A stretch of DNA of 64,000 bases from Kondoa subrosea (lineage: Eukaryota): positions 2,094,484 to 2,158,483 of the forward strand of contig BCIN01000002.1 in assembly GCA_039545335.1 (NCBI GenBank). The letters run 5' to 3'. The stretch's first letter is position 1. Each line of letters starts with the position of its first letter. A model generated the notes under the pieces. That model saw only the letters and a list, made by a program, of their open reading frames with translations. It was not told the origin of the DNA and ran no database searches. Below are positions 5,700-39,150 of the stretch, piece by piece. The position numbers were made by a program, and so were the translations under genes.

Positions 5700-8600
5700 T
5701 TACAAAGTCTGCCAACCTCCCGAATCAATTCCAGCTTCCAGCTTCCTCGCAACTACAATAGGTATCGTTTGCTTTAACCACATAGATCTCAATTCTTCGT
5801 ATCGCTTTATGTTCAGATACTGAGGTCGATGTCGTTTACATCCCATATCTGTTTCACCATGCGGATCGAGATAAGGTGAATTGATCATGCAGCCGTTACT
5901 CGCGTAGAGTGCAACGATGCAGGACTTGCGGATGAGAAGGAAGAGACCACTAGATCCACTGCATCTATAAACGGTATAACTAATCAGGTCGCGCTCGCGC
6001 GACGGCAACAGGAGAACCTACGAAAGCATATGCGAATTGCATTCCCCCAATTCTGGCTCATTCTCAAAATCCCGGTCCATGCAACAGAAGCTCTGGTGGC
6101 AAACAATCTGACCGCATAGAAGACATAGAGCCGGATCAGGTGGAACGTTGCCGCATTTCTTACAAACAGTTGCAGCGGCTCTTTCCACCAAATTGTCCAA
6201 TGTTGAAGGCAGAGATATGAGACCGTGAGGTAAAGGTGACTCAATAGGTACGAGTGATGGCGGAAGTGGAAATTCGAGGTAGGATTTCAGCCAATACCGA
6301 ATTCGAGCCATGAAGGGTTTTCGATTACTGGTATTGAAATGCATTAGGGTTGTTGGATTTGGTATATGAAGGAGTCCAAGTAATTGGGAAAATTCTTGAC
6401 TGGTGCCTTGTGGTATGTTAGTGAGCTGCGCAGATTCGGGTAGTAGAGCTTGGAGAAGGAGTTTCGCTCGACGAAGGAAAGGAAGTGCCAGACATGACGT
6501 TAGCTGACCAAGATGCTGAAGATGAACGGATTGTAGCGGAAGGATATAGGGATGTTTGGCATAGTGTCGCGTGAGCTCGAGCACTACCATCCCGATTTGT
6601 TCACATTCGACAGATTCAGTGTAAGGCTGAACAGCAGCGAGACGGTCGAAACCGCCAATTCGATGCATATTGACCAGGATCCGCAGCAATTCTAAGTAGA
6701 AGCAAAGAACCATATGATATCTGATCGTCGAGGGGTTCAGGGCTGCAAGCTCGACCAATAGCTCGAACGGGTCTCGCAAAAGAACCGGTGTACGAAGATA
6801 AGAGGCGTGTCGAAGAGGCGTTGATATTGTAAGTCGAGCGCTTGCGATCGCTGCAAGATCTTCTGCTAGCACAGTTTGCGCTGCGCCTAATTGTGCCAAC
6901 TGTCTTATGCATAGCAGTAGACTATTGATAATTAGCGAAGACTTTGCTGACGCTTCATCGTCTACAGCCGATATCGCCTGACTTCTCTGCTGGATTTCCA
7001 TCACTGCGATAGTATAGGCGACCAACTCGTTCGGAAGATATGCCGAATGAGTCTCGATCGTTTTCACTGTATTTCGATGCGCTTCGATGCTCAAAGGCCA
7101 GGCAACTTGCATCAATCTTTGCAACATTGCAAGCTCCGATCCACTTGCTTCGCCGACTGATGCTTGCTGGTGAGCAGCGGGTAAGTCTTCATCAATTTTG
7201 AGAGTTCGCAATTGGCCAGCATCGGAACGAGTGAAAGCTTGCAACAGATCCGCCGTCCGGCCCGCTAATTCGGTAATAGCTGGCCTGGATGCCCAATCTT
7301 CTAACTCGTCAATAATCGTTGCGTCTTCCTGCGCCGGAATTGGTGCTACTACTGGATCTTGATGAGAGTATGGCAGCAAGACATTACCGAGACTTTTGCA
7401 AAGCGGACAGATGAATTCTCTTCGACCAAGGTTTTCCGGATGATTTCTAGTAGGCTGACCCGCGTGTCTAGTTTCGACTGATTGACAATAGGTTTGGAAG
7501 CAGGCAAGGTGCATCTTGTGACCGCAGCTCGATAGATAAAGACCAGCAAGATAAGCTCTTGAATGGCCTGTCCCGAATGACATCTCGAAATCGTCATTGG
7601 ACACAGACAGGGTCGAATTAGATGCCAGAATGTCCATAGTAGCCTCAGAGTCCTCTGGATCAAGACCACGTCTGGTAGAGCTCGATTGAATCAAAGCTAG
7701 AGATCCGAAAGCTTCCTGCTTTTTGAGGATTTCTTGACAGACGATGCAGCTCCCATAGATTTCACTTGCTTCTGCTGACGAACTTTGATCCATGTCTTCA
7801 TCATCGTCAACGTCATCAAAGTCTATTGGATTATCGTCAATGAACGTCTGCCGTGCTTTAGCGAATTGTGCTAGGACAGCTGCTTGACGGTCTTTGGCAG
7901 CTTGTTTCTTTGCTTCCAGAGCTTGAGCAGCGATATCGAAACTTGAGCTCTCGGACAGAATGCTTGGAGTTGGTGGCAGAACTGGTTGCTGAGATTGAGC
8001 TTGACATTGCTGAATGCATAGTTCGAGCTTGATCTTTAGCAGCTCTCCATTGATTTTGCTTTTCAAGTCGATTAAAGATTGCATAGCGGAACTCTCACTT
8101 AGAGCAGCATTAATGTTGAGTATGGCTTCCGGTGTTCGCAAAGCCATCAAGAGCAATTGAAGGGTCGCGTCCAAAAGAGGCTCGGAGACGTCACTTCTGG
8201 CTTGCTGCCATTGCAGAACTCTTGCAAGCAGAGTGCCAAACAACTTTGTGCCAAAGGCTTTGTATAAACTGAGAAGTAAAGCTGATGATTGAGATAGTTG
8301 AGATGTCGCATCGAACCATCTTGACATGTCCGGGAACCGATTGCTCTCTTCTATTGCAGATGTCACTTCATCCCTTTGGTTACGAGAATAGCGGAAATAG
8401 AAAGGATGTACTTCATCTAATAGATTTGGTAGAAGAGTGTAGACGCCATGATCGAAAGCACCTTGAGGTTTCCGATAAGTCGACACTTCACTCAAAATTC
8501 TATCTAATTGGGGTGATTCGGAAGATTGATCCGCTAGCTTTTTGACCAGTTCGCTATGAGAGCAAGATCCGAGAGCTAAAGCATGCACTACATCTCGGCG

Positions 8601-11073
8601 AATACGTTGATCTGTTGACCATCCAGCTAGATTGGCAGGCTCGCCGAGCAGCACCACCAGTAGTAGCAGGAACTCTTCTAGCATAGTCTGACTTTGTTGA
8701 GCATCATAGTGATTCTGGTTGTTGTCTTGCTGATCCAGGATTCCGACCAGATTGTATCGATCGAGAAGAGCGACCAGCATCTGTTCAGGTCTGTCAATTA
8801 GTCCAAGTTGAAGGAGATAGGTATCTTGATCGTAAGTATTCTCCCGTAGATTATATTCTCGGTAATGTAGCTGTTGGGCTCGGACGCTGAAGCCGTTTCG
8901 AACCCATAAACCAGCTCGGATTTGCGAGACCAGAACACATGCTGCAATCATCTGATCAGACCTCACTTGTCAATGTATGCAATAACTTACTGCTTAGGGC
9001 ATCTTCTACAGCAAACAGCGAGCCAAAGCTGACAGCCAATCCAGGTAGAGAGAGGAGTGACATTTGGTTCCCGATTCCGTTGCTTTCCGCAATAGCCGAA
9101 ACGTTCTTGCACACCTCTCCGAACAGCCAAGAGACCGGATGATGGAAACTAACAGGGTCGACCAAAACATTATGATTGACACATTCATAGACGATGCCAT
9201 CGAAATTGACCTGATGGAAAGCTTTCGGTGTGTTTTTCTTTGCAATAATGGATATAGCTTCTTGTACTCTTGCTATATCGCTTGAAGAGCTGAAGACTTC
9301 TCCCACTGATCGACAGGCTTTTGCCATATGCATTGTCAAATTGAAGGCCGTGACCCAAGTATCGGCCTCAAATTCCACATGTTCCGTCACTGCTCGAACA
9401 ATTGGATTCATTCCTGTGAAAAGACCTGCGAAAGAAACGAAGAAAGCGATGTTCGAGGAATTGGATGCTAAAGCTTGTTGTGCCTCTGTGGACTGGATCA
9501 AGCGCCGGAGATCTGAGAAGATGTAGAGGTATCGTTTGTGCTTGAAGGAGCTGCTGTCGGGCGAAACATGGGTAATGCTCAGATTAGGTGGAAGATTCAG
9601 ATGTTTTCCAGATCGATCTAATTGTTCAGTGAAGAAGGCGTGTAAGATACAAATGATGATAGGGAAAGCGTTGTGTGCTGAAATAAGATAAGTCGCAATG
9701 TTGGGTATAGCGAAAAGTTGCATGCTCAGTTGAATGATTGAGTATTCTGGTTCTCGATCGGAAAACAGATAGGTGTCCATAAGTACTGGGTATAGATGCA
9801 TGAAAAGACCAGCTGATAAAACAGATCAGACATCGGGGAAAGCGGGAATTGAAAGGCTCACCGAATGTTTGTCTGACCAGACCGCCCAATGACATAACTC
9901 GAACGACCAACTCCCTGACACCTAACCTAGTAGCTTTCCACAATCTACTATCATGTAATAGAAGCTTGCTGAACCTCGACGCATTTGGCAATCCACCTAA
10001 AGATTCCGCAATGATTTGGAGGAAGATCGGCGCTGCTTGCTTTTCACCTTGTACATTGACTTGAGCGAGATCATTCAAAAAGTCAATGATGACGCCAGTC
10101 GCTAATTCAGCAAAGACTTGATCTGCTGGACTGATACTTACTGCGAGATCGATATTGGCGATAGTACGGGATACATGCCGCAGACGAGCGTCGACGGAGG
10201 AGAGCAAGACGACTTCTCTTCCAGTTGAGTCGATTCTAAGAGCGGCGTCCAAGGCGGTAGAAGTAGTCATAGTCGGTACAGCTCGACATAGCTGATCAAT
10301 AACTGCATCGAAACTGTGCTTCTCGTCGTTCCAAAGTACGACACAGGATAAAACATCGGCTTGGATAGAATCCAATTGTTGTACGATCTCGGTAGAAGCA
10401 GGTGAAGCACTCCATGTTTCGATGCAAAAATCCAGTAAGGTTGCTATCAGATGTTTCCATTTGTCTAGAAGATCTGAAGGAAGTACTACTTGTGTGAAGA
10501 TGTTTTCGGAAGAGGGAACATCTGAAACCGGTCCTTGAGTGTTCTTCCATAATTCTGGATCTCCAGCTGAACAAGCCAAAGCACCACCTGCATGAATTTG
10601 AAAGGTAATATCGTGTGAGATATGTCGTGATGGATCGTAGCAGTCGACGCAGAGGAAAGAAGCTTCGTCGTGTCCGCAGTCTCTGCAATTCCTTCGTCAG
10701 CTTGACGGTATTGCTTTGAAGTCTGCCTCGCTGACCGACAAGCATATACACCTTGACCTTGTTTAAAGATATGCCCGCATCTATTCTTTGTGACCTTTGA
10801 GCTCATCTCCTGCTGTTGCCTGCTGTGCAAAGTCCAGTCGAGCGGCACATTTGTTTGCGAGAGTATAGACAATCCAGGCAAGATCTCAGGCGACTCGCCC
10901 ACGGTATCAAGTAGACCAGAGTAAAGCACATGTCTCAAAGCTTGGATGACGCTTGCTGTAGCTCCAGAGTAATCTGCAGCTTCACGACATTGCGCTTGAA
11001 TTTGAGCCAATGATGCACGCAAGGCCGAGAGAGATGAAAGCGGTCCTCCATCAGAGCTGTCCGAAGTGTTCAT
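5700..11073 (-). CDS. UBR1: E3 ubiquitin ligase Ubr1 (N-recognin)
   Basis: UBR box (RCGHIFK...CRDC), ClpS-like VLWNDEKHSF, QIRAGLWVRNG, RING (CIVC...SCGHKMHLAC...CPLCKSLGN), and C-terminal PYLDPHGETD. Confidence 0.95.
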
Positions 11074-11135
11074 GTCTAGCTTCGACCTTCTTGTTTAATC
11101 CATCGCAGTTTGACAGCAACCACCAAACTTGAGAA

Positions 11136-13979: not shown

Positions 13980-14494
13980 GACATATCAAACGTTTCTTCC
14001 CCTTCCCCTTCGAGCACCCCTGAACCTCGCTCTTCCAAATACAGTTTCTCGGCATCGTAGATATTTTCAGTTTGACAAGCAGTTCCTTTTCTGTAATCAA
14101 GAGTCTCATCGCCTTGTGGGTCCTTGGTAGATGCAAAGTAGCATAGTCTTATGGTACATTCACAAATGACCTGAAAAGTCACAGACATCTGAACCGCATG
14201 ATGAGCCAATCCAGCAGAGCTCTTCGCAGCATTGTATCGCTCACACGACACCTCACATGTGGTGAGAGTCTCAAAAGAAAGTCTTCAGCTGGACTTGTTT
14301 GGTACAGCACGTGACTTTTTTTGTAAGCTATAACCTTGGTCACTGGCTCACCAGAGATTTGGGACGCCCATCGACTTCAACAACCATCCGCGAACCTTGC
14401 AAGTGGTAGCAGTTGCTTAGGCTCAAATCCATCTATAATGTCCTCTCATCCTATAGAACCCAACCAATCCGCCAACATTGAAATCCTGGTTTAT

Positions 14495-15001
14495 CGGAGT
14501 CGAGTGAATACTTGGAACTCGTCAAAGTTCAACCGTCGAAGCGAGTAAATCTCCAATGGTCATTCATCCATGTCACTCCCTCGTAGGCCTGGACCTCGGG
14601 ATTCGTTAGCGGTCGAAGCACGCGTCTGCCCCTTTTCCTTAAACGCAGTTCGCAGTCTCCTGCTTGGTGAGGTCTCTTGACCAACATGCCGTACTGAGAA
14701 CTCACACTATCCTCAGGTCAAGCCTTGTCATCGCTTCATTTATCTTCTGGAGGATTTATCCCTAAATTCGCGTGACAAGCTTCCTGTGAGTTGAGCTCAG
14801 CTCTCCTTGACTTTCGCGCATCTTAACCGGCTGCATAGCATACTGCCTGCATCGGAGTACGCCTATCGGAGTCTGTGGTTATAGAAGCGCGCGTAGTCAA
14901 GCTGGTGCGCTTGTTCGACCTTTGTCTCAGTAGAGAAAAGCGAGTCTAACACGCTTTGTGGGAAGCAGGTCTTGACTCGAAGTACATCTCGTCAAAGGAT
15001 A
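14495..15001 (+). repeat. Split direct repeat A1 (507 bp, intron-containing)
   Basis: Matches 20048-20554 at offset 5553; one difference spotted by eye (G14893 vs A20446). Confidence 0.95.
14667..14968 (+). other. Spliceosomal introns within repeat A1: 14667-14716, 14786-14838, 14905-14968 (same positions +5553 in A2)
   Basis: GTGAGG..CTCAC..CAG, GTGAGT..CTTAAC..TAG and GTGCGC..CTAAC..CAG. The second and third are precisely absent from the copy at 15152-15467; the first is supported by the TG|GTCAAG junction at 15150-15157. Confidence 0.9.
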
Positions 15002-15149
15002 TTCTTCTTAACAATCTCACTCACTCTTTTATCGCGAATCTTACCTCAATCTCTTTCTTTCGATTCACCTTATGTCGGCGAACTATGACAAGGTGGTTAA
15101 CCTCATCAATAACTTCGATGAGAAGGAAGCTATGGATGTCGCAAGCGAA

Positions 15150-15467
15150 TGGTCAAGCCTTGTCATCGCTTCATTTATCTTCTGGAGGATTTATCCCTAA
15201 ATTCGCGTGACAAGCTTCCTCATACTGCCTGCATCGGAGTACGCCTATCGGAGTCTGTGGTTATAGAAGCGCGCATAGTCAAGCTGGTCTTGACTCGAAG
15301 TACATCTCGTCAAAGGATATTCTTCTTAACAATCTCACTCACTCTTTTATCGCGAATCTTACCTCAATCTCTTTCTTTCGATTCACCTTATGTCGGCGAA
15401 CTATGACAAGGTGGTTAACCTCATCAATAACTTCGATGAGAAGGAAGCTATGGATGTCGCAAGCGAA
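15150..15467 (+). repeat. Tandem intron-less (processed) duplicate of the element leader and gag start
   Basis: 15152-15220 = 14717-14785; 15221-15286 = 14839-14904; 15287-15467 = 14969-15149. Confidence 0.95.
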
Positions 15468-16982
15468 GTCATTCAGCTTGTTGCAAAGGATCTACTCGAA
15501 CGATCCGAGGCCATTTCTTTCCTGTCAGTCTATCTCGAGAGCGACTATCATGAAGAAGACTGGTTACCCCTTTTGGATAATCTCATCGAAAACAGTCCTG
15601 ACGCAGAAGAGCGAGAACTCACGCACCTTCTTACCGAACAACCAGTTGAACCTGAAACTGAACCCGCCTCTGTTATCGGTGGATATGGCATGCGAAAATA
15701 CAGGGTTCCTAAGCAGCCGTATGGTCAAGAACGTGTCGATGGTGATGATAGTTCCGATGAGTTACCTAAGAAGCCAAGTGATCCGAAGGGAAAGCGGAAG
15801 GCTGTTGAATTTGAAGTGGATCAATTATTCCAACCTCCTGCTAAGAAAGGTCGACTTCAAGATTCTCCTCCTGTTGCTTCCACTTCAAAAGTCCCTTTGT
15901 CTAGCCAATCTGCACCGCGTCGAGCTTCAGCTGCTTTACCTAAATCTGCCAAAGCTACAAAACGGCAAGTCCCCAGTGATAGATCAAAAGCTGCCGAAAA
16001 CAATAGGACTCTCTTTTCTCGATCAATCTCCCCGGAACCTGTGCCAGTCGGAAGAGTTAATGATCCAATTCAACCAAGTCAACCTTTGCCTGCGCCCAAA
16101 CCCAACCCCGCCGAAGCTGAGTTATTTGCTCGCTTGGCAGAAGAGCTGCGCCCCTCTCTCGGCAAGAAGCCTGCCGTTGAACCTCCGAAAGCTAACTCTT
16201 ACATTCCCTCTCTGGCTTTACCAGCTCAATCTTCTAGCTCCGCGCAATCCAATGGTCGATCAGATGTATTGGCACGCTTGCAGATGCTGCGAAGACAAAC
16301 AATCGTGGACGCTTCATGTCCTATTCTCAAGCAAACGCTGGAAACCAGATTGGTTTACTTGGGAGAAGTCGATAGCGAAGGAGCTGCTGAAACCCTTCGC
16401 CTTGGAGCAAATATTCGTTTCCCCAAAGATGGCATGCTCAAGCTCATCCACGATGACTACGTCGATATGTCGGCGGTTTTGTCCAATTTGTTTAATCAAC
16501 CCAAAGTTGTTACAAACTTCGAGACCTGGCTTATGGCATGGCAGCACTATTCCTCAGTTGTTGAAGTCTTCTACCCTCATCGGTCTAAGGAACTATCATC
16601 GTATGCATCGCTCATCAATTCTTGCTTTATCGAGCACCCAGCAACTGCAATCGAGACCGATCGACGAATCAGGCGAGAATACGCTACCTCCCATAGCTTT
16701 TCCCTGCTACAAAAAGAACTGTATTCAGATATCCGTATCAATGTCCGATTGGCCGCTGCTTCAAGTGCGCTACCCTCTACTTCTTCTTCTTCTCCGGGTT
16801 CTGGTCGGTCTCGTAAACGCGATCCCCGTCCTCTTGAGGAGCAAATTTGTAATAAGTACAACTCTGGTATCGCTCACGACTCATGCAAGCGACGACATGT
16901 CTGCGAGAATTGTAGAACAGACAAAGACGCTCATCCCGCCATCAAGTGTGCCAAGAAACGCAGTGCAAGCAACAGCAAGTGA
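15390..16982 (+). CDS. Gag-like ORF1 of the YR retrotransposon
   Basis: 530 aa with a helical region (WLMAWQHYSSVVEVFYPHRSKELSSY) and a C-terminal Cys/His knuckle (CNKYN...CKRRHVCENC...HPAIKC). Confidence 0.88.
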   Translation: MSANYDKVVNLINNFDEKEAMDVASEVIQLVAKDLLERSEAISFLSVYLESDYHEEDWLPLLDNLIENSPDAEERELTHLLTEQPVEPETEPASVIGGYGMRKYRVPKQPYGQERVDGDDSSDELPKKPSDPKGKRKAVEFEVDQLFQPPAKKGRLQDSPPVASTSKVPLSSQSAPRRASAALPKSAKATKRQVPSDRSKAAENNRTLFSRSISPEPVPVGRVNDPIQPSQPLPAPKPNPAEAELFARLAEELRPSLGKKPAVEPPKANSYIPSLALPAQSSSSAQSNGRSDVLARLQMLRRQTIVDASCPILKQTLETRLVYLGEVDSEGAAETLRLGANIRFPKDGMLKLIHDDYVDMSAVLSNLFNQPKVVTNFETWLMAWQHYSSVVEVFYPHRSKELSSYASLINSCFIEHPATAIETDRRIRREYATSHSFSLLQKELYSDIRINVRLAAASSALPSTSSSSPGSGRSRKRDPRPLEEQICNKYNSGIAHDSCKRRHVCENCRTDKDAHPAIKCAKKRSASNSK

Positions 16983-18876
16983 ACTGCAACTGCGTGAACA
17001 TCCTTCGGGTTTACCTGGCATCGATTCGATTCCGAAATATAAACGCCAGTTTGTGTTTAGTCCCGATGAAATCCCTTCTTCCCCGTCTGTTGAGCGCACC
17101 TATACTCTTCCTGCACCAGCTCTGATTCCTCCATCCTTCTTATCGGATCCGGTACTGACATACTCGCTTATGAAAGCAAAGCACCTCATCAAGGTCGAAA
17201 CTCCATTCAATATTGCATTGCTTGAAAGGCTTCTGAGGCACCACCCAAATCAACCTCTCGTTACTTGGGCAATTCACTCGCTGCAATACGGTTTTTGGCC
17301 TGGTATGGAAGGCAATTCGCAACGTTTCGCCTCTCGCTCGGAAATTCAGTATGACCTGGATATGGCTGATTTGCGCTTGCTGGCCACCAATGCAATCGAT
17401 GAAGTCGCTAAAGGTCATTACTCTCCAGCCTTTGACACCCTTCTCCCTGGAATGCACGTCTCACCTCAATTCATCGTTCGAAGAGTCGATGACAGTCCGA
17501 ATCAAGGTCGTGTTGTAACTGATCAGTCAGCTTCGGGGCTGAACGATGCTTTAAATGCGGGTCAAGTCCAGTACGACAATCTTCGTGATCTTTCTCGACT
17601 GGTGCGATATAATCGTTTCCGTGATGTCGACCGTTTCTTCTCTACTGGCTGGAAAAGCGACATCTCCGGCGCTTTTCGTAACCTCCCTATGCATCCGATA
17701 TGGCAACTCTTTCAAGTCGTTCGTGTGCCGGTCTTTGAAGAAGAAGTTCATATCGGCTGGAATTATCACATAGATCGGCGCGGTGCTTTCGGCAGTCGCC
17801 GCCTGCCCTTTCTCTTCACAACTATCATGGCACTGATTTCATGGGCTGCTCAGCACGAGTTTCGACTGCCGAATCCCCTCTTCTTCGTCGATGATAGTTT
17901 TGGCCAGGACTGTTCCGGTGTTTTCCGCCCACTTACTCATTTGGGTGAGACACGTCTTGTCCCTGCGCAGCAATGGATTCTACTACGGACTTGGCAAATG
18001 CTCAACGTGCCGTGGAAATGGGTCAAACAAATTTTCGGGGTTCGCATAGTCATCCTTGGCTTCGATTTCGATTTTCGCAGTCTCACCATACATATACCGA
18101 AGGCAGCGATTGATCGGCTGGAAGATACTATCACTCGTTTTCTTCGCAACAATAGTCCACCGCTCAAAGAATGGCGTTCCATCATTGGTTACCTTAATTG
18201 GGTTTTAAATGTCATTCCGCTGGCTGCTCCTTTAATGGAATGTCTTTATGCCAAGACAAAGGGAAAGCAGGTCGAGTCAGCCGGTATTTGTCATAACCAG
18301 GCAACTAGGAGTACCCTACTTTGGTTCATCGCTGAACTCCGACAAAACCCATCTCTCGACCTTCTTTCTTTACGGTGTACCAATTGGCAACCGCATGAAG
18401 CCGATTTGGTTATCTTTACGGATGCATGCTTGCAAAGCCGTAAGTCACAGGGTGTCGGTTTGGGCTTTCATTACACTGTCGAGGGTCGTCTATATGGGTT
18501 CTATCATCGGTCTTTTTCTCTTCCCGACGACGATATCTACTTCAATGAAGCGTATACTATTCTTGCAGCTATCCGACATGCTACAGAAATGCCCACACCA
18601 CCGCGTCGTTTGCTGGTCTATTCGGACTCGGCTCTATCATGCTATGCTTTCAATCGAGGTCGTGCAGCTGGTTATCCCAACGCAATCATAGATGCTGCTT
18701 TCCATCTTCTTCGCCTGCACGACATTGAACTGCGGGTGTTTCACATTCCTGGCAAACAGAATGTGGTTGCGGACGATTTGTCTCGTTTGGTTCTTGCGGC
18801 ACTTCGCAGTCTTCATGGTTTTTTCTCCATCCAGCATTTTCAACCCCCACCTTTGGCGTTGGGGGCAGCACTGTGA
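15403..18876 (+). CDS. Reverse transcriptase / RNase H ORF; its N-terminal ~525 codons overlap gag in the +1 frame
   Basis: RT motifs KSDISGAFRNLP, AFGSRRLP, FVDD, ILGFDFD; RNase H motifs IFTDA, NEA, YSDS, NVVADDLSR. Confidence 0.93.
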   Translation: MTRWLTSSITSMRRKLWMSQAKSFSLLQRIYSNDPRPFLSCQSISRATIMKKTGYPFWIISSKTVLTQKSENSRTFLPNNQLNLKLNPPLLSVDMACENTGFLSSRMVKNVSMVMIVPMSYLRSQVIRRESGRLLNLKWINYSNLLLRKVDFKILLLLLPLQKSLCLANLHRVELQLLYLNLPKLQNGKSPVIDQKLPKTIGLSFLDQSPRNLCQSEELMIQFNQVNLCLRPNPTPPKLSYLLAWQKSCAPLSARSLPLNLRKLTLTFPLWLYQLNLLAPRNPMVDQMYWHACRCCEDKQSWTLHVLFSSKRWKPDWFTWEKSIAKELLKPFALEQIFVSPKMACSSSSTMTTSICRRFCPICLINPKLLQTSRPGLWHGSTIPQLLKSSTLIGLRNYHRMHRSSILALSSTQQLQSRPIDESGENTLPPIAFPCYKKNCIQISVSMSDWPLLQVRYPLLLLLLRVLVGLVNAIPVLLRSKFVISTTLVSLTTHASDDMSARIVEQTKTLIPPSSVPRNAVQATASELQLREHPSGLPGIDSIPKYKRQFVFSPDEIPSSPSVERTYTLPAPALIPPSFLSDPVLTYSLMKAKHLIKVETPFNIALLERLLRHHPNQPLVTWAIHSLQYGFWPGMEGNSQRFASRSEIQYDLDMADLRLLATNAIDEVAKGHYSPAFDTLLPGMHVSPQFIVRRVDDSPNQGRVVTDQSASGLNDALNAGQVQYDNLRDLSRLVRYNRFRDVDRFFSTGWKSDISGAFRNLPMHPIWQLFQVVRVPVFEEEVHIGWNYHIDRRGAFGSRRLPFLFTTIMALISWAAQHEFRLPNPLFFVDDSFGQDCSGVFRPLTHLGETRLVPAQQWILLRTWQMLNVPWKWVKQIFGVRIVILGFDFDFRSLTIHIPKAAIDRLEDTITRFLRNNSPPLKEWRSIIGYLNWVLNVIPLAAPLMECLYAKTKGKQVESAGICHNQATRSTLLWFIAELRQNPSLDLLSLRCTNWQPHEADLVIFTDACLQSRKSQGVGLGFHYTVEGRLYGFYHRSFSLPDDDIYFNEAYTILAAIRHATEMPTPPRRLLVYSDSALSCYAFNRGRAAGYPNAIIDAAFHLLRLHDIELRVFHIPGKQNVVADDLSRLVLAALRSLHGFFSIQHFQPPPLALGAAL

Positions 18877-19874
18877 TGACTAGAGCAAGAAACGGATCCG
18901 CTAGCAAGCGGGTCCACCCTGCCTCTCAAGCGGTGAATTCTCTGTCAAAAGAAGAGCTGGTACAGTTTAGTCGACACCTGCAACTGTCAGCTTTTGAGGC
19001 ATCCACTATCAAGGGTCATCGCGCCGCCCTGAAGCTCTGGCTTGAATTTGTCAATGTATACAACTTCCCCGTCTTACCGTCGGCTTATACTCTTGCTCTC
19101 TTTGTCAGCTTCGCAATTCGGCGCATCAAATCTGTCACGTCTTATCTAGCTGGCGTTGGACATTACTTTCGCGACTATACACCTTGGGATGAAATTCGCT
19201 TCCATCCGCTGGTCACAGAAACCCTGAAGGGAGCTATGAAATGGAAGGGACAGTCTGTTCGTCGTCGCGATCCCCTTACTTTGGCTCACATCCGGTTCCT
19301 CTTTGACCGCGCATTGGATCCTCTCGCGTCCTTCGACGACATTCTGTTTGCTGTTCTCATCTGCTGTGGCACCTTCGCAATGCATCGACTTGGAGAACTC
19401 ACTGCTCCGCGAAAAGACGATCCATCTGCTCATAGAAAGGTCATTCTGCGCAGTTCCGTCAACCTTTCTCCTGATGGTTTCTCTTATCACCTACCATACC
19501 ATAAAGGTGGCGCTCTCTTCCAAGGGGACACGGTTCGGCTCGTCCCAGAATCCTGTCCTGATCTACCGATCCTACCTTTGTTCGCAAAATATCTTCTGAA
19601 GCGCGATACACTTGTCGATTCGCCTTACCTTTTCGTCCGCGAAAATGGCACACTTCCTTCAGCAGCTTGGTTCCACTCTCGCCTGTCGATACTGGACGAG
19701 AACAATCTCGGTGGTCATTCCATGCGGGCTGGGGGTGCTACATATTTCTTTTCTCGTGGTATCCCGCCCGAAATTATCCGCAAGCTTGGTCGTTGGTCTT
19801 CAGCAGCATTCGACATGTATATCCGTCAACATGCCTCAGTGCTCATGCAGGCCTTCGTCGCCTCGGCCGAATGA
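18876..19874 (+). CDS. Tyrosine recombinase (YR)
   Basis: Catalytic R (HRLGEL), HxxR (GHSMRAGGAT), GRWSS and Y (FDMYIR). ATG 18876 overlaps the RT stop codon (TGATG). Confidence 0.95.
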   Translation: MTRARNGSASKRVHPASQAVNSLSKEELVQFSRHLQLSAFEASTIKGHRAALKLWLEFVNVYNFPVLPSAYTLALFVSFAIRRIKSVTSYLAGVGHYFRDYTPWDEIRFHPLVTETLKGAMKWKGQSVRRRDPLTLAHIRFLFDRALDPLASFDDILFAVLICCGTFAMHRLGELTAPRKDDPSAHRKVILRSSVNLSPDGFSYHLPYHKGGALFQGDTVRLVPESCPDLPILPLFAKYLLKRDTLVDSPYLFVRENGTLPSAAWFHSRLSILDENNLGGHSMRAGGATYFFSRGIPPEIIRKLGRWSSAAFDMYIRQHASVLMQAFVASAE

Positions 19875-19922
19875 TCGCCTTTTCTTCTTTTTCGCTCTTT
19901 TTCATCTCTCTCTAGCCTTTTA

Positions 19923-20047
19923 GCGTTTTCGGCTCTCATTATCGATTCTGTTCGTCTGTATGTGGCTATTACCCAATGTATACTCGCACGTTTTGCTACT
20001 TCAACGCCCCATATCACTTGGAATGCAACGAGCAAGAAACGGTTGGT
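19923..20047 (+). repeat. Split direct repeat B1 (125 bp)
   Basis: Matches 20615-20739 (GCGTTTTCGG...CGGTTGGT). Confidence 0.95.
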
Positions 20048-20554
20048 CGGAGTCGAGTGAATACTTGGAACTCGTCAAAGTTCAACCGTCGAAGCGAGTA
20101 AATCTCCAATGGTCATTCATCCATGTCACTCCCTCGTAGGCCTGGACCTCGGGATTCGTTAGCGGTCGAAGCACGCGTCTGCCCCTTTTCCTTAAACGCA
20201 GTTCGCAGTCTCCTGCTTGGTGAGGTCTCTTGACCAACATGCCGTACTGAGAACTCACACTATCCTCAGGTCAAGCCTTGTCATCGCTTCATTTATCTTC
20301 TGGAGGATTTATCCCTAAATTCGCGTGACAAGCTTCCTGTGAGTTGAGCTCAGCTCTCCTTGACTTTCGCGCATCTTAACCGGCTGCATAGCATACTGCC
20401 TGCATCGGAGTACGCCTATCGGAGTCTGTGGTTATAGAAGCGCGCATAGTCAAGCTGGTGCGCTTGTTCGACCTTTGTCTCAGTAGAGAAAAGCGAGTCT
20501 AACACGCTTTGTGGGAAGCAGGTCTTGACTCGAAGTACATCTCGTCAAAGGATA
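20048..20554 (+). repeat. Split direct repeat A2 (507 bp, introns retained)
   Basis: Copy of 14495-15001 directly abutting B1, forming a circle-junction-like B|A joint. Confidence 0.95.
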
Positions 20555-20614
20555 CCCGCCCGCCCTCACCTGTTTGTGTTTGTATGTATTGGGAATGTTG
20601 TGTATTGGGATGTT

Positions 20615-20739
20615 GCGTTTTCGGCTCTCATTATCGATTCTGTTCGTCTGTATGTGGCTATTACCCAATGTATACTCGCACGTTTTGCTACTTCAACGCC
20701 CCATATCACTTGGAATGCAACGAGCAAGAAACGGTTGGT
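20615..20739 (+). repeat. Split direct repeat B2 (right terminus of the element)
   Basis: Copy of 19923-20047. Confidence 0.95.
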
Positions 20740-22152
20740 GAAGACCAACCCGCAGGTAGAGTTGCCCTGGAGTGTCACCATAAACCTCGGCGGGAAAGGT
20801 CTAATCACATCAGAAGACTCTTGAAGGATCGTCCAAAAGGCACCAACGCAAAGCTAAACCAACCGTTAAGCGATATTGAAGACTTAGGCAGGTTGTGGCG
20901 TCGCACTGCCAAACGATTGTCTGCGGTATCTACTGGATCGGAGGATGACAGGTTTAACGTCGACGACGTCTCATTCGAAATCTCTGTAGAGCCCTCATCA
21001 ACAACATTCAAAAGTTCGGTCGAATCATCAACGGCGTCAATGTCGTCAACTTCCTCTGGATCATCTTCTAGATCAGCCTCCCGGAGCTCTCGACAAGAAG
21101 CCAAACATCGCAAGCGAGCTCCAATCGGCGGCGAAGGCAAAGTGGTGAGCGTGCATGTGGAAACTTATAAGAAAGGTTCTCGAAATGTATGTGTTGTCTG
21201 TTTTCTTATCACGCCTTAGCCTAACTTGCTTATTTTACATTGGCAGTACTATCATCAAATGCAAGGGGAGATAGCCAAGGCTCAACTAGCTCAAAAGATT
21301 GCTGAATTGGACGCTGAAAGAGAGCGTGCGGAGCATGAGAAAGAGAAAAGAAAGTTGGAGGCAGAGCGCTTGAAAGCTGAGGTGAAGCGTTTGGAAGCTG
21401 AAGGGAAGTTGGCGGAGCACCTTCGAGAGACGAACAGCAAAATCCTCTTAAATTGGCAGATCTCCGTATTGGTCGTGGAAGGTACGATTCAATCAAAGCC
21501 TCCATCGTTTGCTCCTTGTCTCATATCTTGCTGTAGCTACAACTGTATGGATGAAATCCCTCGACCCTGAATCTACGAAGGAAATGGATAATATGACTCG
21601 TACGCTCGCGGCTTCTTTCGCAAAGGCCTGTATGGTAATGTCGAGCTACAGTGCGCCAGAATCTCCTTCGAATGTCTGTTCCACAATCACAAACATGGCC
21701 GGTCATAAAGGAGATCTTCGATACGCTGCCCGCAGCAATACAGGAACTTGCCCAGAGCGCCTGTTTCAATTTGAAGCCGGCCGAAGCTCAAAAACGTCAT
21801 GCTTACTGTCATCCACAACCCAATAGAGAAGAGCTGTACACCTACTTTCTGCGAGAAACCCAATGGTCCGATAAAGATCGCGAAGCTATCTCAGCAATCG
21901 ATAAGCTTGCGCGACAGAAGATAAAAAGATCAGGCGCTTCTCCAGATGTGACGGAAGCATTTCCAGTTTCGTAGACTGTCTTCCTCGCTGTATGTCATGC
22001 TTTGGTTAGAGTTGAGTAGTACATACTTGCTGGATGAAGCCTTGCTTGTCTCTGAGATTCGACAAACTTGACAGCTCCTTTGCCCATGGTGCGAGACTCG
22101 ACGCCTTCACGAGATTACTTAAACTTCTTGCTTTTGACCACCAACCCTAAAT

Positions 22153-25902: not shown

Positions 25903-28089
25903 ATGTCGGCCGTCAATGGAATACCCAATGGCGTTCATCCAGCTAATGGAGAGCCTACGACGACATCAGGCAAAGTCAAGACGAGTCGAGCAGCGTTGAA
26001 GCGACAGAAAAAGAAAGCAAAGAAAGCTTCAAACAGTCAATCTGCTACTGAAAGTGAATCTGAGCTTTCTTCTGCTGCTGAAGATGCAGAACCTGAGCAA
26101 CCTTCATTGGTGCGTCTGTCCATTCATTCAGCAATCAAGGGTGAGAAACTTATTAAGACACGATATTTACAGGCCAAGTCAAAGTTACCTTCTATTGTGG
26201 ATGAAATCTTAGCTGAAGTCAAGGACGATGAGGAAATGACTGATGCACCTGGTCTGGCTCAATTCAAGGATGTCTTTGCCAAATTCAGATCAGAAATAGC
26301 AGATGTATGTTTGCCTCAATTTCTGCTCTATGGATATGCTAATATCTGTTCTTATGTTATTAGGAAGAAGAAGGAATTGCTGCAGATGAGGGACCATTGA
26401 AAGGACAAGTCATTTACTCGGACGATGAAGCAGACAGCGAAGGTTCTTCAAATGAAGGCGAAAAGGGAGAAGCGCCAATTTCCAAACGCAAGCTAAGGAA
26501 AGAAACTCGATTATCTGTTGCTGAACTCAAACGATTGGTCAAAAGACCTGAAGTTGTTGAATGGGTTGATGTCACAGCAGCCGATCCAAGATTACTCATT
26601 TGCTTGAAATCATATAGAAACGCTATTCCAATACCTCAACATTGGTCAGCGAAACGTGATTACTTGGCTGGCAAACGTGGAATAGAAAAACCTCCCTTTC
26701 AACTTCCTTCTTACATCGCTGATACCGGTATTGGTATACAAAGAGAGGCGGTCAAAGAGAAAGAAGAGGGTCAATCCTTGAAGCAAAAGACTAGAGAAAG
26801 AGTGCAACCAAAGATGGGCAAGATTGATATCGATTATCAGAAATTGCACGATGCTTTCTTCAAGTATCAAGTACCAGGAAAGATGACCTTGTTTGGAGAA
26901 ATGTGCGCATTTCATTCATACTTTCCGCACTCTTGCAAGTGCTAATAGGGTGCTGCTGTGTACAGGTACTATGAAGGCAAAGAATTCGAGACCGATTTAC
27001 GAAACAAACGACCTGGTGATCTATCTAAAGAACTTATCGAAGCACTTTCAATTCCTCCTCTAGCGCCTCCGCCTTGGTTGATCGCCATGCAACGATTCGG
27101 TCCACCACCTTCTTACCCACAACTCAAAATCGCAGGTCTCAATTGCCCTATACCTGAAGGCGCTCAATGGGGTTTCCATCCAGGTGGATGGGGTAAACCT
27201 CCAGTAGATGAATACATGCGTCCTTTGTATGGTGATGTTTTCGGAGTCAACACTGCAAACGCTTCAACAGATTATAATGCCGATCCCGGTTTACCTATAG
27301 AGAGTGAAACTTGGGGAGAACTAGAACCTGATGAAGAATCAGATGAAGAGGAAGAAGAGGAGGAGGAAGAAGAAGAAGATCAAGGAATGACAGATGCTCA
27401 AAGTTCTGCAGATGGAATGCAAACTCCTGCTGGTGGTTTGATCACTCCTTCTGGAATGGCTTCTACTGCTTCAACAGTTCCTGGTGGATTGGAGACTCCT
27501 GATTTCATGGATCTCAGGAAAAAGAGGGAAGGAACGGACTCGATTGCTCCTTCATCAGCAAACGAAAGAAGAGATCTTTATACTGTTGTGCAAGAAAAGA
27601 GGGGAGCGCCTGGCTCTGGTGGCTTTTTGGGCAGCGAGAGGACGTACGATCTGTCTGGTATGGCAAATACTGCACCACCAGTTGGTATTCTCGGTCAAGA
27701 AGATCGCGGTTCAAAGGTGAGTTTCCATTCAGCATCATTTGACCTCCGACTGAGATCTATTTGCTATAGCGGAAGGGCGGTTCTGGTGTAGATATCGCTT
27801 TGGATCCAGCAGAGCTCGAAGGCATGACCGAACAAGAATTGAGACAGCGATATGATGCTCAAAAGAATCGGGCTGCCCAAAGCGGTGGTGGAGCAGCAGG
27901 TCAAGCGGGTCGCGAAGACTTCTCCGATTTCGTTCAAGAAGAAGTCGCTAAGCGGAGAGCTCGAGCACGTGAGTCATTCTCGTAATGAAACAGTTGAGTG
28001 GTTCTGACATTGTGATCGTTGCAGAAAAGAGAGACGGAGCTGGAAGTGGAAGGAGCAGCAAGGACAACAAGGAAAAGTTCAAGTTCTGA
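25903..28089 (+). CDS. SF3B2: Splicing factor 3B subunit 2 (Cus1/SAP145)
   Basis: LSVAELKRLVKRPEVVEW, IEKPPFQLP, QPKMGKIDIDYQKLHDAFF, PPPWLIAMQRFGPPPSYP; ends KEKFKF*. Confidence 0.96.
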
Positions 28090-37748: not shown

Positions 37749-39150
37749 TCAATCCTTCCTTCTACTTTTCTCTTCATCTCTATATTTCCTCTTCCTACCA
37801 GAATCCCGCTTCTCATCCCTGTAAGACGACCGTCTTCTGTCTGGTGATCGACTCCTTGACCTCCTCCGACTACTGCTACTGCTCTTGCGGTCACTCCTAT
37901 CTCGATCTGATTTCCTTTCATCTGAATCCCTTTCTCTCCGTCTTCGATCATCTGAATCATAGTTTCTGCTACTTCGAGAGGGCGGTGAATCGGTATGCTG
38001 ACGAGAGGAGGTACCAGACCGAGAAGGAGGTGGCATTAACGCTCGGTCTTCAGCTGGTGTGGACTGCAAACGAAGAGTCAGCGGAAGGTGAATTATGCTG
38101 GGTGTAAGTACTCACAGTACCAGAACCAGAGCCGGAAGCGACTTCTCTTCTCATCAAAGGAACAAAGCGCATTTCTTCTCTTCGACTCTTCTTTGGTGCA
38201 GATCGACTACTGCTACTTTTCGATGACCCAGGTTCTTCGGTCAAAGTCAAAGGTTTCGCTCCAATACCCAGTAAAGCAGGTCGAGCTTTAGGAACGATAG
38301 CTTCTGTGGGTTTCCTTGCTTCTCTTTCTGAAGCGTTGCTTCCCCATCCCATTCCTCGAAGCAAAGCAGCGCCAAATTGTTCTACTGGTACACGAGCGTA
38401 ATCATCCAAAGTGCTCTGTAAATGAATCAGCTCTGAATACGAGAACGAGCAGGAGAGACGAACGGAATCTGGCCTGGATTCGAGATCCCTTCGAAAACTA
38501 TCACTCTCATCTCCTTCTTCCTTTGCGCCCAATTTGAATGTATCATCTGCGTGTTGTAAAATAGCATCTACTTCTGGCGCATCTTGCCCATTTTCGCTAA
38601 TACCTTTGAGCAATTCCCTCAAAGCTTTCGCATCTTCAGTTTCTGGTTCTTGTGGTACAGTAGCAGCAGGAGAAGGAGCAGCCGATACAGCTGGTGATGC
38701 AGAGGCGGAAGCTAAGGTAGTATGGGCTAGAGCACCTCTTAATTCTGTTGTAGGCGTAGCAGTACCATTTCGACTTGCCTGATTGTTGCTCAAGCCTCCA
38801 ACAACATTAGCTCTGATCTGATCTGCTGCTGCTAATTCGGCTTCCGTCAAAGGTCGACCAGTATTTGCTGCCCCTGTTGCTTCGTCTGGCAAGTATGTCT
38901 TCACTTTCCGCCTTGAGCCTGCTCGCAACAGCTGAGCTTCTTTCTTCCAATCCTTGTTAGGTTGAGATGGGATGATCAGAGCCGGTTGACCATTCTCTGC
39001 TTGCTTTTTACGTTTCGCTGAAGCAGACGCATCGAATTCGCTCAAAGATTCGACAGCTGGCTGTTTCCGACTATCCGAATCCGAGTCCGAGTCTGAGTCG
39101 CCTCTGAGATTCTGTCTAGGCCTTTGAATTGTGAAACTGATAGGCGGCAT
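37749..39150 (-). CDS. SPP2: G-patch splicing factor, Spp2/MOS2-like
   Basis: TLDDYARVPVEQFGAALLRGMGW...RPALLGIGA; RS/RD-rich tail. Confidence 0.85.

Follow-up and report, generated by a model that had tools for sequence, protein, structure and literature searches.

An intron-free copy of the leader lies in tandem with its intron-containing original in a predicted Ngaro-type retrotransposon of Kondoa subrosea

Retroelements normally lose introns, since their template RNA passes through the splicing machinery. Goodwin and Poulter, in 2004, reportedly mentioned introns in some tyrosine-recombinase (YR) elements. Among the closest described systems, the Ngaro elements are YR retrotransposons whose direct repeats are split and arranged as A1-[ORFs]-B1A2B2, where the ORFs are the open reading frames (PMC8547959, PMC3783388, PMC13465315). 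In surveys of YR elements the strings 'intron' and 'splic' do not occur in PMC3783388 and PMC3266345, and 'intron' does not occur in PMC4157794. Penelope-like elements have been called highly unusual among retroelements for retaining introns (PMC8557442); Penelope has a 75-bp intron in its 5' untranslated region (UTR) inside a pseudo-long terminal repeat (PMC2377424), and in Penelope-like elements spliced and unspliced RNAs both occur and partial tandems are common (PMC2377424, PMC8557442). Spliced and unspliced complementary DNAs (cDNAs) were both detected with a marked DIRS-1, the primer of which is unknown (PMC7192593). Spliced LINE-1 RNAs integrated in the genome are known as SpIREs (PMC5860796), and RNA-templated break repair with intron loss has been reported (PMC12065846). 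Here we describe a stretch of 64,000 nucleotides (nt) from Kondoa subrosea (GenBank assembly GCA_039545335.1, contig BCIN01000002.1, positions 2,094,484 to 2,158,483 of the forward strand; the window hereafter, with positions counted from its first letter) in which a predicted Ngaro-type YR retrotransposon at about 14494-20739 carries intron-like segments in its leader and, directly behind this leader, a copy of it from which two of these segments are missing exactly.

The features of the leader and of its copy are the following.

14494-15001, + strand: repeat A1, spanning a putative promoter, exons 1 to 3, the beginning of exon 4 and three intron-like segments; ungapped match to repeat A2
14667-14716, + strand: putative intron 1, 50 nt, GTGAGG...CCTCAG, from reading of the sequence
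14717-14785, + strand: leader exon 2 in its unspliced original form; 15152-15220 and, in A2, 20270-20338 have the same sequence (100%)
14786-14838, + strand: intron 2, 53 nt, GTGAGT...CTTAAC...CATAG, missing from the copy
14839-14904, + strand: leader exon 3, unspliced original, with G at 14893 as its only difference from the copy
14905-14968, + strand: intron 3, 64 nt, GTGCGC...CTAAC...AGCAG, missing from the copy
14969-15149, + strand: leader exon 4 and the first, truncated start of gag, with ATG at 15072
15150-15151, + strand: junction dinucleotide TG
15152-15467, + strand: spliced, intron-free copy of exons 2-4, reaching gag codon 26 and passing seamlessly into the element body

The insertion as a whole occupies 15150-15467 (318 nt) and stands head-to-tail behind the unspliced leader. 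A preliminary description of this DNA, made from its letters, had stated that 15152-15467 equals 14717-15149 after removal of 14786-14838 and 14905-14968, and a script comparison bore this out, with one mismatch in 316 nt. For this comparison 14717-14785, 14839-14904 and 14969-15149 were joined (316 nt) and set against 15152-15467 (316 nt), and the sole mismatch was found to be the G at 14893 facing an A at 15275. By direct reading and repeat search the relation consists of three collinear blocks, namely 14716-14785 with 15151-15220 (70 nt, 100%), 14839-14906 with 15221-15288 (68 nt, 99%) and 14963-15149 with 15281-15467 (187 nt, 99%). Between the copy and the exons of A2 there are 0 mismatches over the 167 nt in common. 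The two further statements, that both missing segments have GT..AG limits with a branch motif and that both A repeats keep the introns, also held: CTTAAC lies in 14786-14838 and CTAAC in 14905-14968, and A1 (14488-14997) aligns ungapped to A2 (20041-20550) with 3 mismatches in 510 nt, the match extending 4 nt further. Two of these three mismatches fall at the 5' edge and the third is at 14893, where A1 has G and both the copy and A2 have A. A single A-to-G change in A1 after the event would explain this position under either of the two routes considered below, and it is the only sequence change since the duplication event.

The missing segment corresponding to intron 2 can be placed in one register only and that of intron 3 in four equivalent registers, one of which gives GT..AG, and the chance of finding GT and AG at both is about (1/256)x(4/256), or about 6e-5, with branch motifs and size not counted. 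For comparison with the host, the window was scanned for GT..AG segments joining two open frames of at least 60 codons, which yielded 235 raw candidates; about a dozen of these, all predictions, combine a donor close to the consensus with a YTRAY branch motif and a YAG acceptor, at lengths of about 48-63 nt (for example 8942-8990, 26305-26363, 27717-27769 and 38064-38115). The GTGCGC donor of intron 3 recurs in the host candidate intron 26903-26965. Limits, branch motif and size show that introns 2 and 3 look like the introns predicted for this genome. As the two introns are lost exactly and the copy then runs on into the element body, the copy has in all probability passed through spliced RNA and reverse transcription. 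Neither an A-run, as expected of a poly(A) tail, nor a flanking target-site duplication was found at the copy, which continues into the body at 15468, so that it would represent a chimeric joint and not a free-standing retrocopy. When metagenome contigs were scanned for the last part of exon 2 as an exact pattern of 26 nt, 0 matches were obtained. The predicted folding of the leader is unremarkable and no better than that of shuffled sequences (z 0.06 spliced, z -0.87 unspliced). CTTGAC/GTCAAG inverted motifs flank putative intron 1 and intron 3 (14673-14723, 14896-14980, 15277-15295), and in spliced exons 3 and 4 a hairpin of 7 bp (AGTCAAG, a 5-nt loop, CTTGACT) is present in the predicted fold.

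The structure was compared with two DNA sequencing runs, X1 and X2, available as contigs on 14300-15800; they come from one sample of one study, are possibly the source of the window and are not independent. Copy number and duplication were judged by contig depth, and remnants were detectable at 95% likeness or above. The contig pieces end at 14745, the last word containing A14715; they end and start at 15149 and 15151, which is the duplication joint; and they break at 15220/15221 and at 15288, which are the spliced joints, while the piece 14756-14868 is bounded exactly by words containing intron 2 bases. These are the places where an assembly graph must fork if spliced and unspliced paths and the duplication joint exist in the reads. 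The depth of the flank (X1/X2: 142.7/51.9) was taken as 1x. Against it the element body stands at 133.3/47.8, about 0.93x flank where 1x is expected, and the A-only pieces at 252-287/91-110, about 2x, as expected without the duplication. The piece 14972-15149 reaches 266.2/88, about 2x where 1x would be expected without the duplication, and the pieces of exon 2 (408.5/184.1) and exon 3 (387.4/139.3) reach about 3x where 2x would be expected. In X2 the bins at 15116-15217, where no listed piece lies, have depths of 49.5 and 37.2, and we infer that further pieces of roughly single-copy depth, from the 12 beyond those listed, cover the joints. Since the body lies at about 0.93x flank, the element is single copy, and since the depth of the A-only pieces equals A1 plus A2, there is no solo A-B remnant at 95% likeness or above.

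We consider it very likely that spliced leader RNA of the element was reverse-transcribed and that the product was linked, with no homology involved, to gag codon 26 of an unspliced copy, either by repair or by a template jump. A reverse transcriptase (RT), most simply the element's own, would have copied the spliced transcript toward its 5' end, and the product would have been joined without homology, with TG at the joint, to the unspliced copy at gag codon 26. By route (a) the resident copy would have been broken at gag codon 26 and mended with spliced RNA or cDNA; homology in gag would have served on one side, and on the other the reverse transcript would have been joined by its end to the broken end. 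By route (b) the RT, while on spliced RNA, would have made a non-homologous jump within the replication cycle, landing on an unspliced RNA at gag codon 26; the leader would then have been finished on the unspliced RNA, followed by the normal transfer to A2, completion and integration. The capture of Ty1 cDNA at breaks and the non-homologous recombination of retroviruses are both familiar processes. To repair in place we give a chance a little below even, and to the non-homologous template jump one slightly lower still. The single copy number and the 2-nt filler suit route (a) a little better, and in favour of route (b) are the element's intact ends and the fact that RT jumps are more frequent per event. 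The preliminary description had proposed that the RT switched from spliced to unspliced RNA; the derivation of the copy from spliced element RNA stands, and the switch becomes one of at least two routes to the same product. Back-splicing or trans-splicing was also tried as the source of the joint and rejected: a GT follows the break in gag, but no TG is predicted.

The 5' edge of the copy reads GCGAA|TG|GTCAAG. It had been taken as evidence of a third intron (14667-14716), and the junction letters are as claimed, but the evidence for splicing there comes down to the single T at 15150: upstream of 15152, the spliced exon 1|exon 2 joint (...CTTG|GTCAAG) matches 2 nt and the unspliced sequence (...TCAG|GTCAAG) matches 1 nt. 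The edge would be accounted for equally well if the RNA began at about 14716-14717 and one or two untemplated nucleotides were added. The TG may accordingly stem from the last 2 nt of exon 1, from the G of the unspliced AG plus one filler nucleotide, or from untemplated or cap-derived nucleotides. Each reading of the edge needs a coincidence that we estimate to be small, in the order of a few cases in a hundred at most, namely that the jump came 2 nt beyond an exon joint or that the RNA began right after a good-looking 3' splice site. The leader may be said to contain two introns and possibly a third, putative intron 1. GTCA microhomology at 15152 and 15468 had further been suggested to mark the switch; GTCA does stand at both places, but as a switch site it is 2 nt out of register, and a template switch guided by it was rejected because it predicts GCGAA-GTCAAG with no TG. 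No ATG-free stretch of the 64-kb window is longer than 14686-15072 (386 nt). This agrees with a 5' UTR, and the counterpart of the stretch in A2, 20239-20584 (345 nt), is the third longest; the last upstream ATG (14686) lies inside putative intron 1 and is compatible with both readings of the edge.

Several points weigh against this account of the joint. There is one locus of a single-copy element, with no sister copies to show route or frequency. A replicative origin predicts a parent copy, which at 95% likeness or above is absent (body at about 0.93x flank), a repair origin requires a break exactly inside the element, and the TG is not uniquely explained by either route. The sole complete relative found, metagenome locus L028, has A1 and A2 that are ungapped and no such duplication. 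The structure is supported by DNA contigs of only the one sample, possibly the window's own source, and among the pieces listed none bridges a joint with 31 letters on both sides, so that the support for the junctions comes from break points and depth arithmetic.

The strongest rival, which we nevertheless regard as improbable, is that two DNA copies or alleles, one retrotransposed from spliced RNA and one unspliced, were joined by unequal non-homologous crossover, or that a resident copy took up a spliced cDNA circle by integration and afterwards lost the tandem body by pop-out. The origin would then still be RNA and only the joint would have been made by DNA recombination. Such events lead to an identical end product, in yeasts pop-out between long direct repeats is frequent, and splicing of exon 1 to exon 2 would give TTGGTC at their joint, the hexamer at the B|A joint where the recombinase acts. 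They need more steps, however, and there is no second copy or solo A-B remnant, the A-only pieces at about 2x being accounted for by A1 and A2. Moreover, an in-register cut at the pseudo-site TTGGTC predicts GCGAAG-TCAAG, whereas GCGAA-TG-GTCAAG is observed, and for the same reason the recombinase acting at this site was rejected as the direct cause of the duplication.

An assembly artefact, in which two haplotypes with spliced and unspliced leaders or contaminating cDNA were stitched in tandem, is very improbable. It draws on the reads being from one sample, maybe the source of the window, with no listed contig bridging the joints. But collapsed haplotypes predict 1x at 15002-15149 and 2x at exon 2, and about 1.7-2.0x and 2.9-3.9x were observed; contigs that end at 15149 and start at 15151 indicate a second successor and a second predecessor in the reads, and the longest contigs, 250 kb and 132 kb, are those of genomic DNA libraries. 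Break points and the 3x/2x/1x depths argue against an artefact of either the assembler or the haplotypes. An origin without RNA, by two chance deletions of intron-like segments in a tandem duplication or by intron gain in A after the duplication, deserves the least credence of all, as nothing specific speaks for it beyond a relative (L023) with a repeat-containing 344-nt GT..AG segment that is possibly a gained insertion, while it demands two exact GT..AG events with branch motifs and sizes like those of host introns, the dinucleotides by themselves having a chance of about 6e-5, or an intron gain that struck A1 and A2 identically and spared the copy.

The duplication would bear on expression as well. 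The first gag ATG (15072) opens 42 codons and its frame stops at the TAA at 15198 inside the copy, the duplication joint itself makes an ATG at 15149-15151, and a transcript started in A1 has six ATGs upstream of the true gag ATG at 15390. Because six ATGs and a 42-codon upstream ORF precede the gag ATG, this copy is probably impaired in the translation of gag and pol, and poor translation would suit an element that has not multiplied. Since both A repeats keep the introns, unspliced RNA is likely to be the usual replication template, and from the same retention a retrovirus-like split between spliced messenger and unspliced genomic RNA may reasonably be inferred. We also entertain, as a doubtful extension, that the leader introns act as a retrovirus-like switch with a spliced messenger and an unspliced template, that 14716-14717 is the RNA 5' end from which the obligatory A1-to-A2 strand transfer of Ngaro would start, and that the duplication is the fossil of such a transfer mis-aimed by an RT loaded with spliced RNA. 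If true, the locus would preserve, in natural and intron-marked form, a replication cycle for which neither priming nor transfers are known from elsewhere.

The remaining features of the element are given below.

15390-16982, + strand: gag-like ORF1, 530 amino acids, with a Cys/His-rich C-terminus
15403-18876, + strand: pol frame (RT/RNase H), with similarity to relatives from near 17020
18876-19874, + strand: tyrosine recombinase ORF, 332 amino acids, Cre-like by profile and structure
19923-20047, + strand: repeat B1, 125 nt, 100% identical to B2 and adjoining A2
20047-20554, + strand: repeat A2, with all three intron-like segments kept and A at 20446
Between A2 and B2: spacer of 60 nt
20615-20739, + strand: repeat B2, 125 nt, 100% identical to B1, right end of the element

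Whole-window repeat search, alignment and exact comparison place the split direct repeats in the order A1-[ORFs]-B1-A2-B2 at about 14494-20739, and as read from its sequence this stretch is an intact-looking Ngaro-type YR retrotransposon with the layout A1-[gag, pol, YR]-B1-A2-B2. The identity as a YR retrotransposon was already part of the preliminary description and is backed by the repeat layout and by the Cre-like recombinase found by profile and by Foldseek. The gag, pol and YR products of the window matched no Pfam family at E 0.01, with RVT_3 at E 0.15 the only candidate, and a single-sequence search of the PDB with the YR ORF gave 0 matches. A profile of this ORF and 24 homologues (n=25) matches Cre recombinase with E of about 1e-6, the H-x-x-R, W and Y positions being aligned; the AlphaFold 2 model of the ORF has a mean pLDDT of 87.8 and matches Cre (4crx_A) in Foldseek with E 4e-9 and TM 0.58. 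The pol of the window is 31-39% identical to 12 aligned relatives over 88-100% of the query. In the alignment of 13 members that includes it, RVT_1 was found in 6/13, RVT_3 in 4/13 and RVT_thumb in 2/13, and as its relatives match these domains, an RT would be encoded on the spot. The window's own pol has no Pfam match at E 0.1 (RVT_3, E 0.15), so that its designation as RT/RNase H is taken from the domains of the relatives and not from a direct domain match; an FVDD box is visible in its translation, and its profile gave matches in the PDB only at E 0.02. The closest named relatives of pol are hypothetical proteins of Leucosporidium, Phenoliferia, Microbotryum and Pilatotrama. Similarity to pol stops at the pol stop codon, and the YR ORF begins at the same place (18876). 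A methyltransferase appears to be absent, as judged by size only, there being no room for about 200 extra residues and no Pfam match of any kind.

At the ends of the element the left flank reads ...GGTTTA|TCGGAG and the right ...GGTTGGT|GAAGACC (14485-14494, 20733-20746), and the internal B1|A2 joint reads GGTTGGTCGGAG. As the target and the circle joint both carry GGTT..T, this common sequence is likely to be the recombinase crossover core. The pol frame opens with an ATG 13 nt after the gag ATG and is free of stops across all 530 gag codons (15403-16982, +1 relative to gag), where 11.1 stops are expected from synonymous gag shuffles (minimum 4 in 20000) and 12.9 from codon permutation (minimum 2). 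Similarity to the pol of relatives begins only just past the gag stop, and the relatives L002 and L028 do not obviously have this open overlap. That 1.6 kb of overlap is kept open though homology is not detectable there points to an overprinted extension at the N-terminus of pol or to expression of pol by leaky scanning. Outside the element, a multi-exon host gene lies at 6018-11094 on the - strand; its largest ORF (983 amino acids) is UBR1-like, its relatives carrying PF22960 and PF18995, and identity to its best relative is just 52%, so that the protein collection covers the host lineage poorly.

Relatives of the element were encoded by 32 metagenome loci, 4 of which were scanned for repeats and 11 by self-BLAST. 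As none of these loci aligns to the window's element at the DNA level, the leader is not comparable across relatives. Complete A/B pairs were seen only in L028 among the loci scanned, and L002 has B1/B2 repeats with A1 not detectable. In L023 the RT frame contains at 944-1287 a GT..AG segment of 344 nt that has CTTAAC ahead of its AG and an internal 40-nt repeat, and taking it out restores the open pol frame. L011 (at about 724-729) is exactly without this segment, with 19 mismatches in 906 aligned nt, and L006, 82% identical to L011, likewise is without it. Because of the internal repeat the segment may have been gained as an insertion instead of being an old intron; alternatively, an intron could have been lost through RNA in L011. 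L019 has at 741-1279 a coding-like stretch of 539 nt without GT..AG limits that is missing in L017 (at about 780), and L026 has a pol deletion of about 489 nt relative to L004 (837-1325).

The locus presents a YR retrotransposon that keeps two or three leader introns in both of its A repeats together with a DNA copy of the spliced form. It offers evidence, from sequence alone, that introns 2 and 3 are spliced in vivo, it would show that spliced element RNA can reach a reverse transcriptase, and the 5' edge of the copy is a probable marker of an RNA 5' end. As such it is a natural counterpart to artificial intron-marked reporters, in a class for which replication is known mostly as a model. This is a single locus of one genome, and by itself it leaves the understanding of YR elements unchanged.

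Compared with the described systems, the element resembles Ngaro in the order A1-[ORFs]-B1A2B2, in the combination of gag, RT/RNase H and YR, in apparently having no room for a methyltransferase and in its fungal, basidiomycete-type host range, but it differs in having introns inside repeat A, that is in the 5' leader, and a tandem spliced copy of that leader. In the open-access literature searched, no YR element was found described in which the leader stands in unspliced form next to a spliced copy. With the Penelope-like elements it shares a short spliceable leader intron kept within the terminal repeat (PMC2377424, PMC8557442), whereas those elements belong to another RT clade and have GIY-YIG instead of YR; the Penelope tandems of PMC2377424 and PMC8557442 are not presented there as one leader in a spliced and an unspliced copy side by side. 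As in the SpIREs, a retrotransposon's own spliced RNA would have been reverse-transcribed into the genome (PMC5860796), but SpIREs are separate insertions without the spliced-out part, and here the copy is in tandem with the unspliced original in one element. Double-strand-break repair templated by RNA or cDNA and non-homologous template switching by RT likewise give precise intron loss end-joined to genomic sequence (PMC12065846, PMC11390984); the difference is that here the donor and the recipient are the same element, and the outcome is a duplicated leader in place of intron loss or a foreign insertion. The ingredients are therefore already known, and what was not found described in the literature searched is their combination, a Ngaro element with introns in its repeat-A leader and with spliced and unspliced leaders in tandem.

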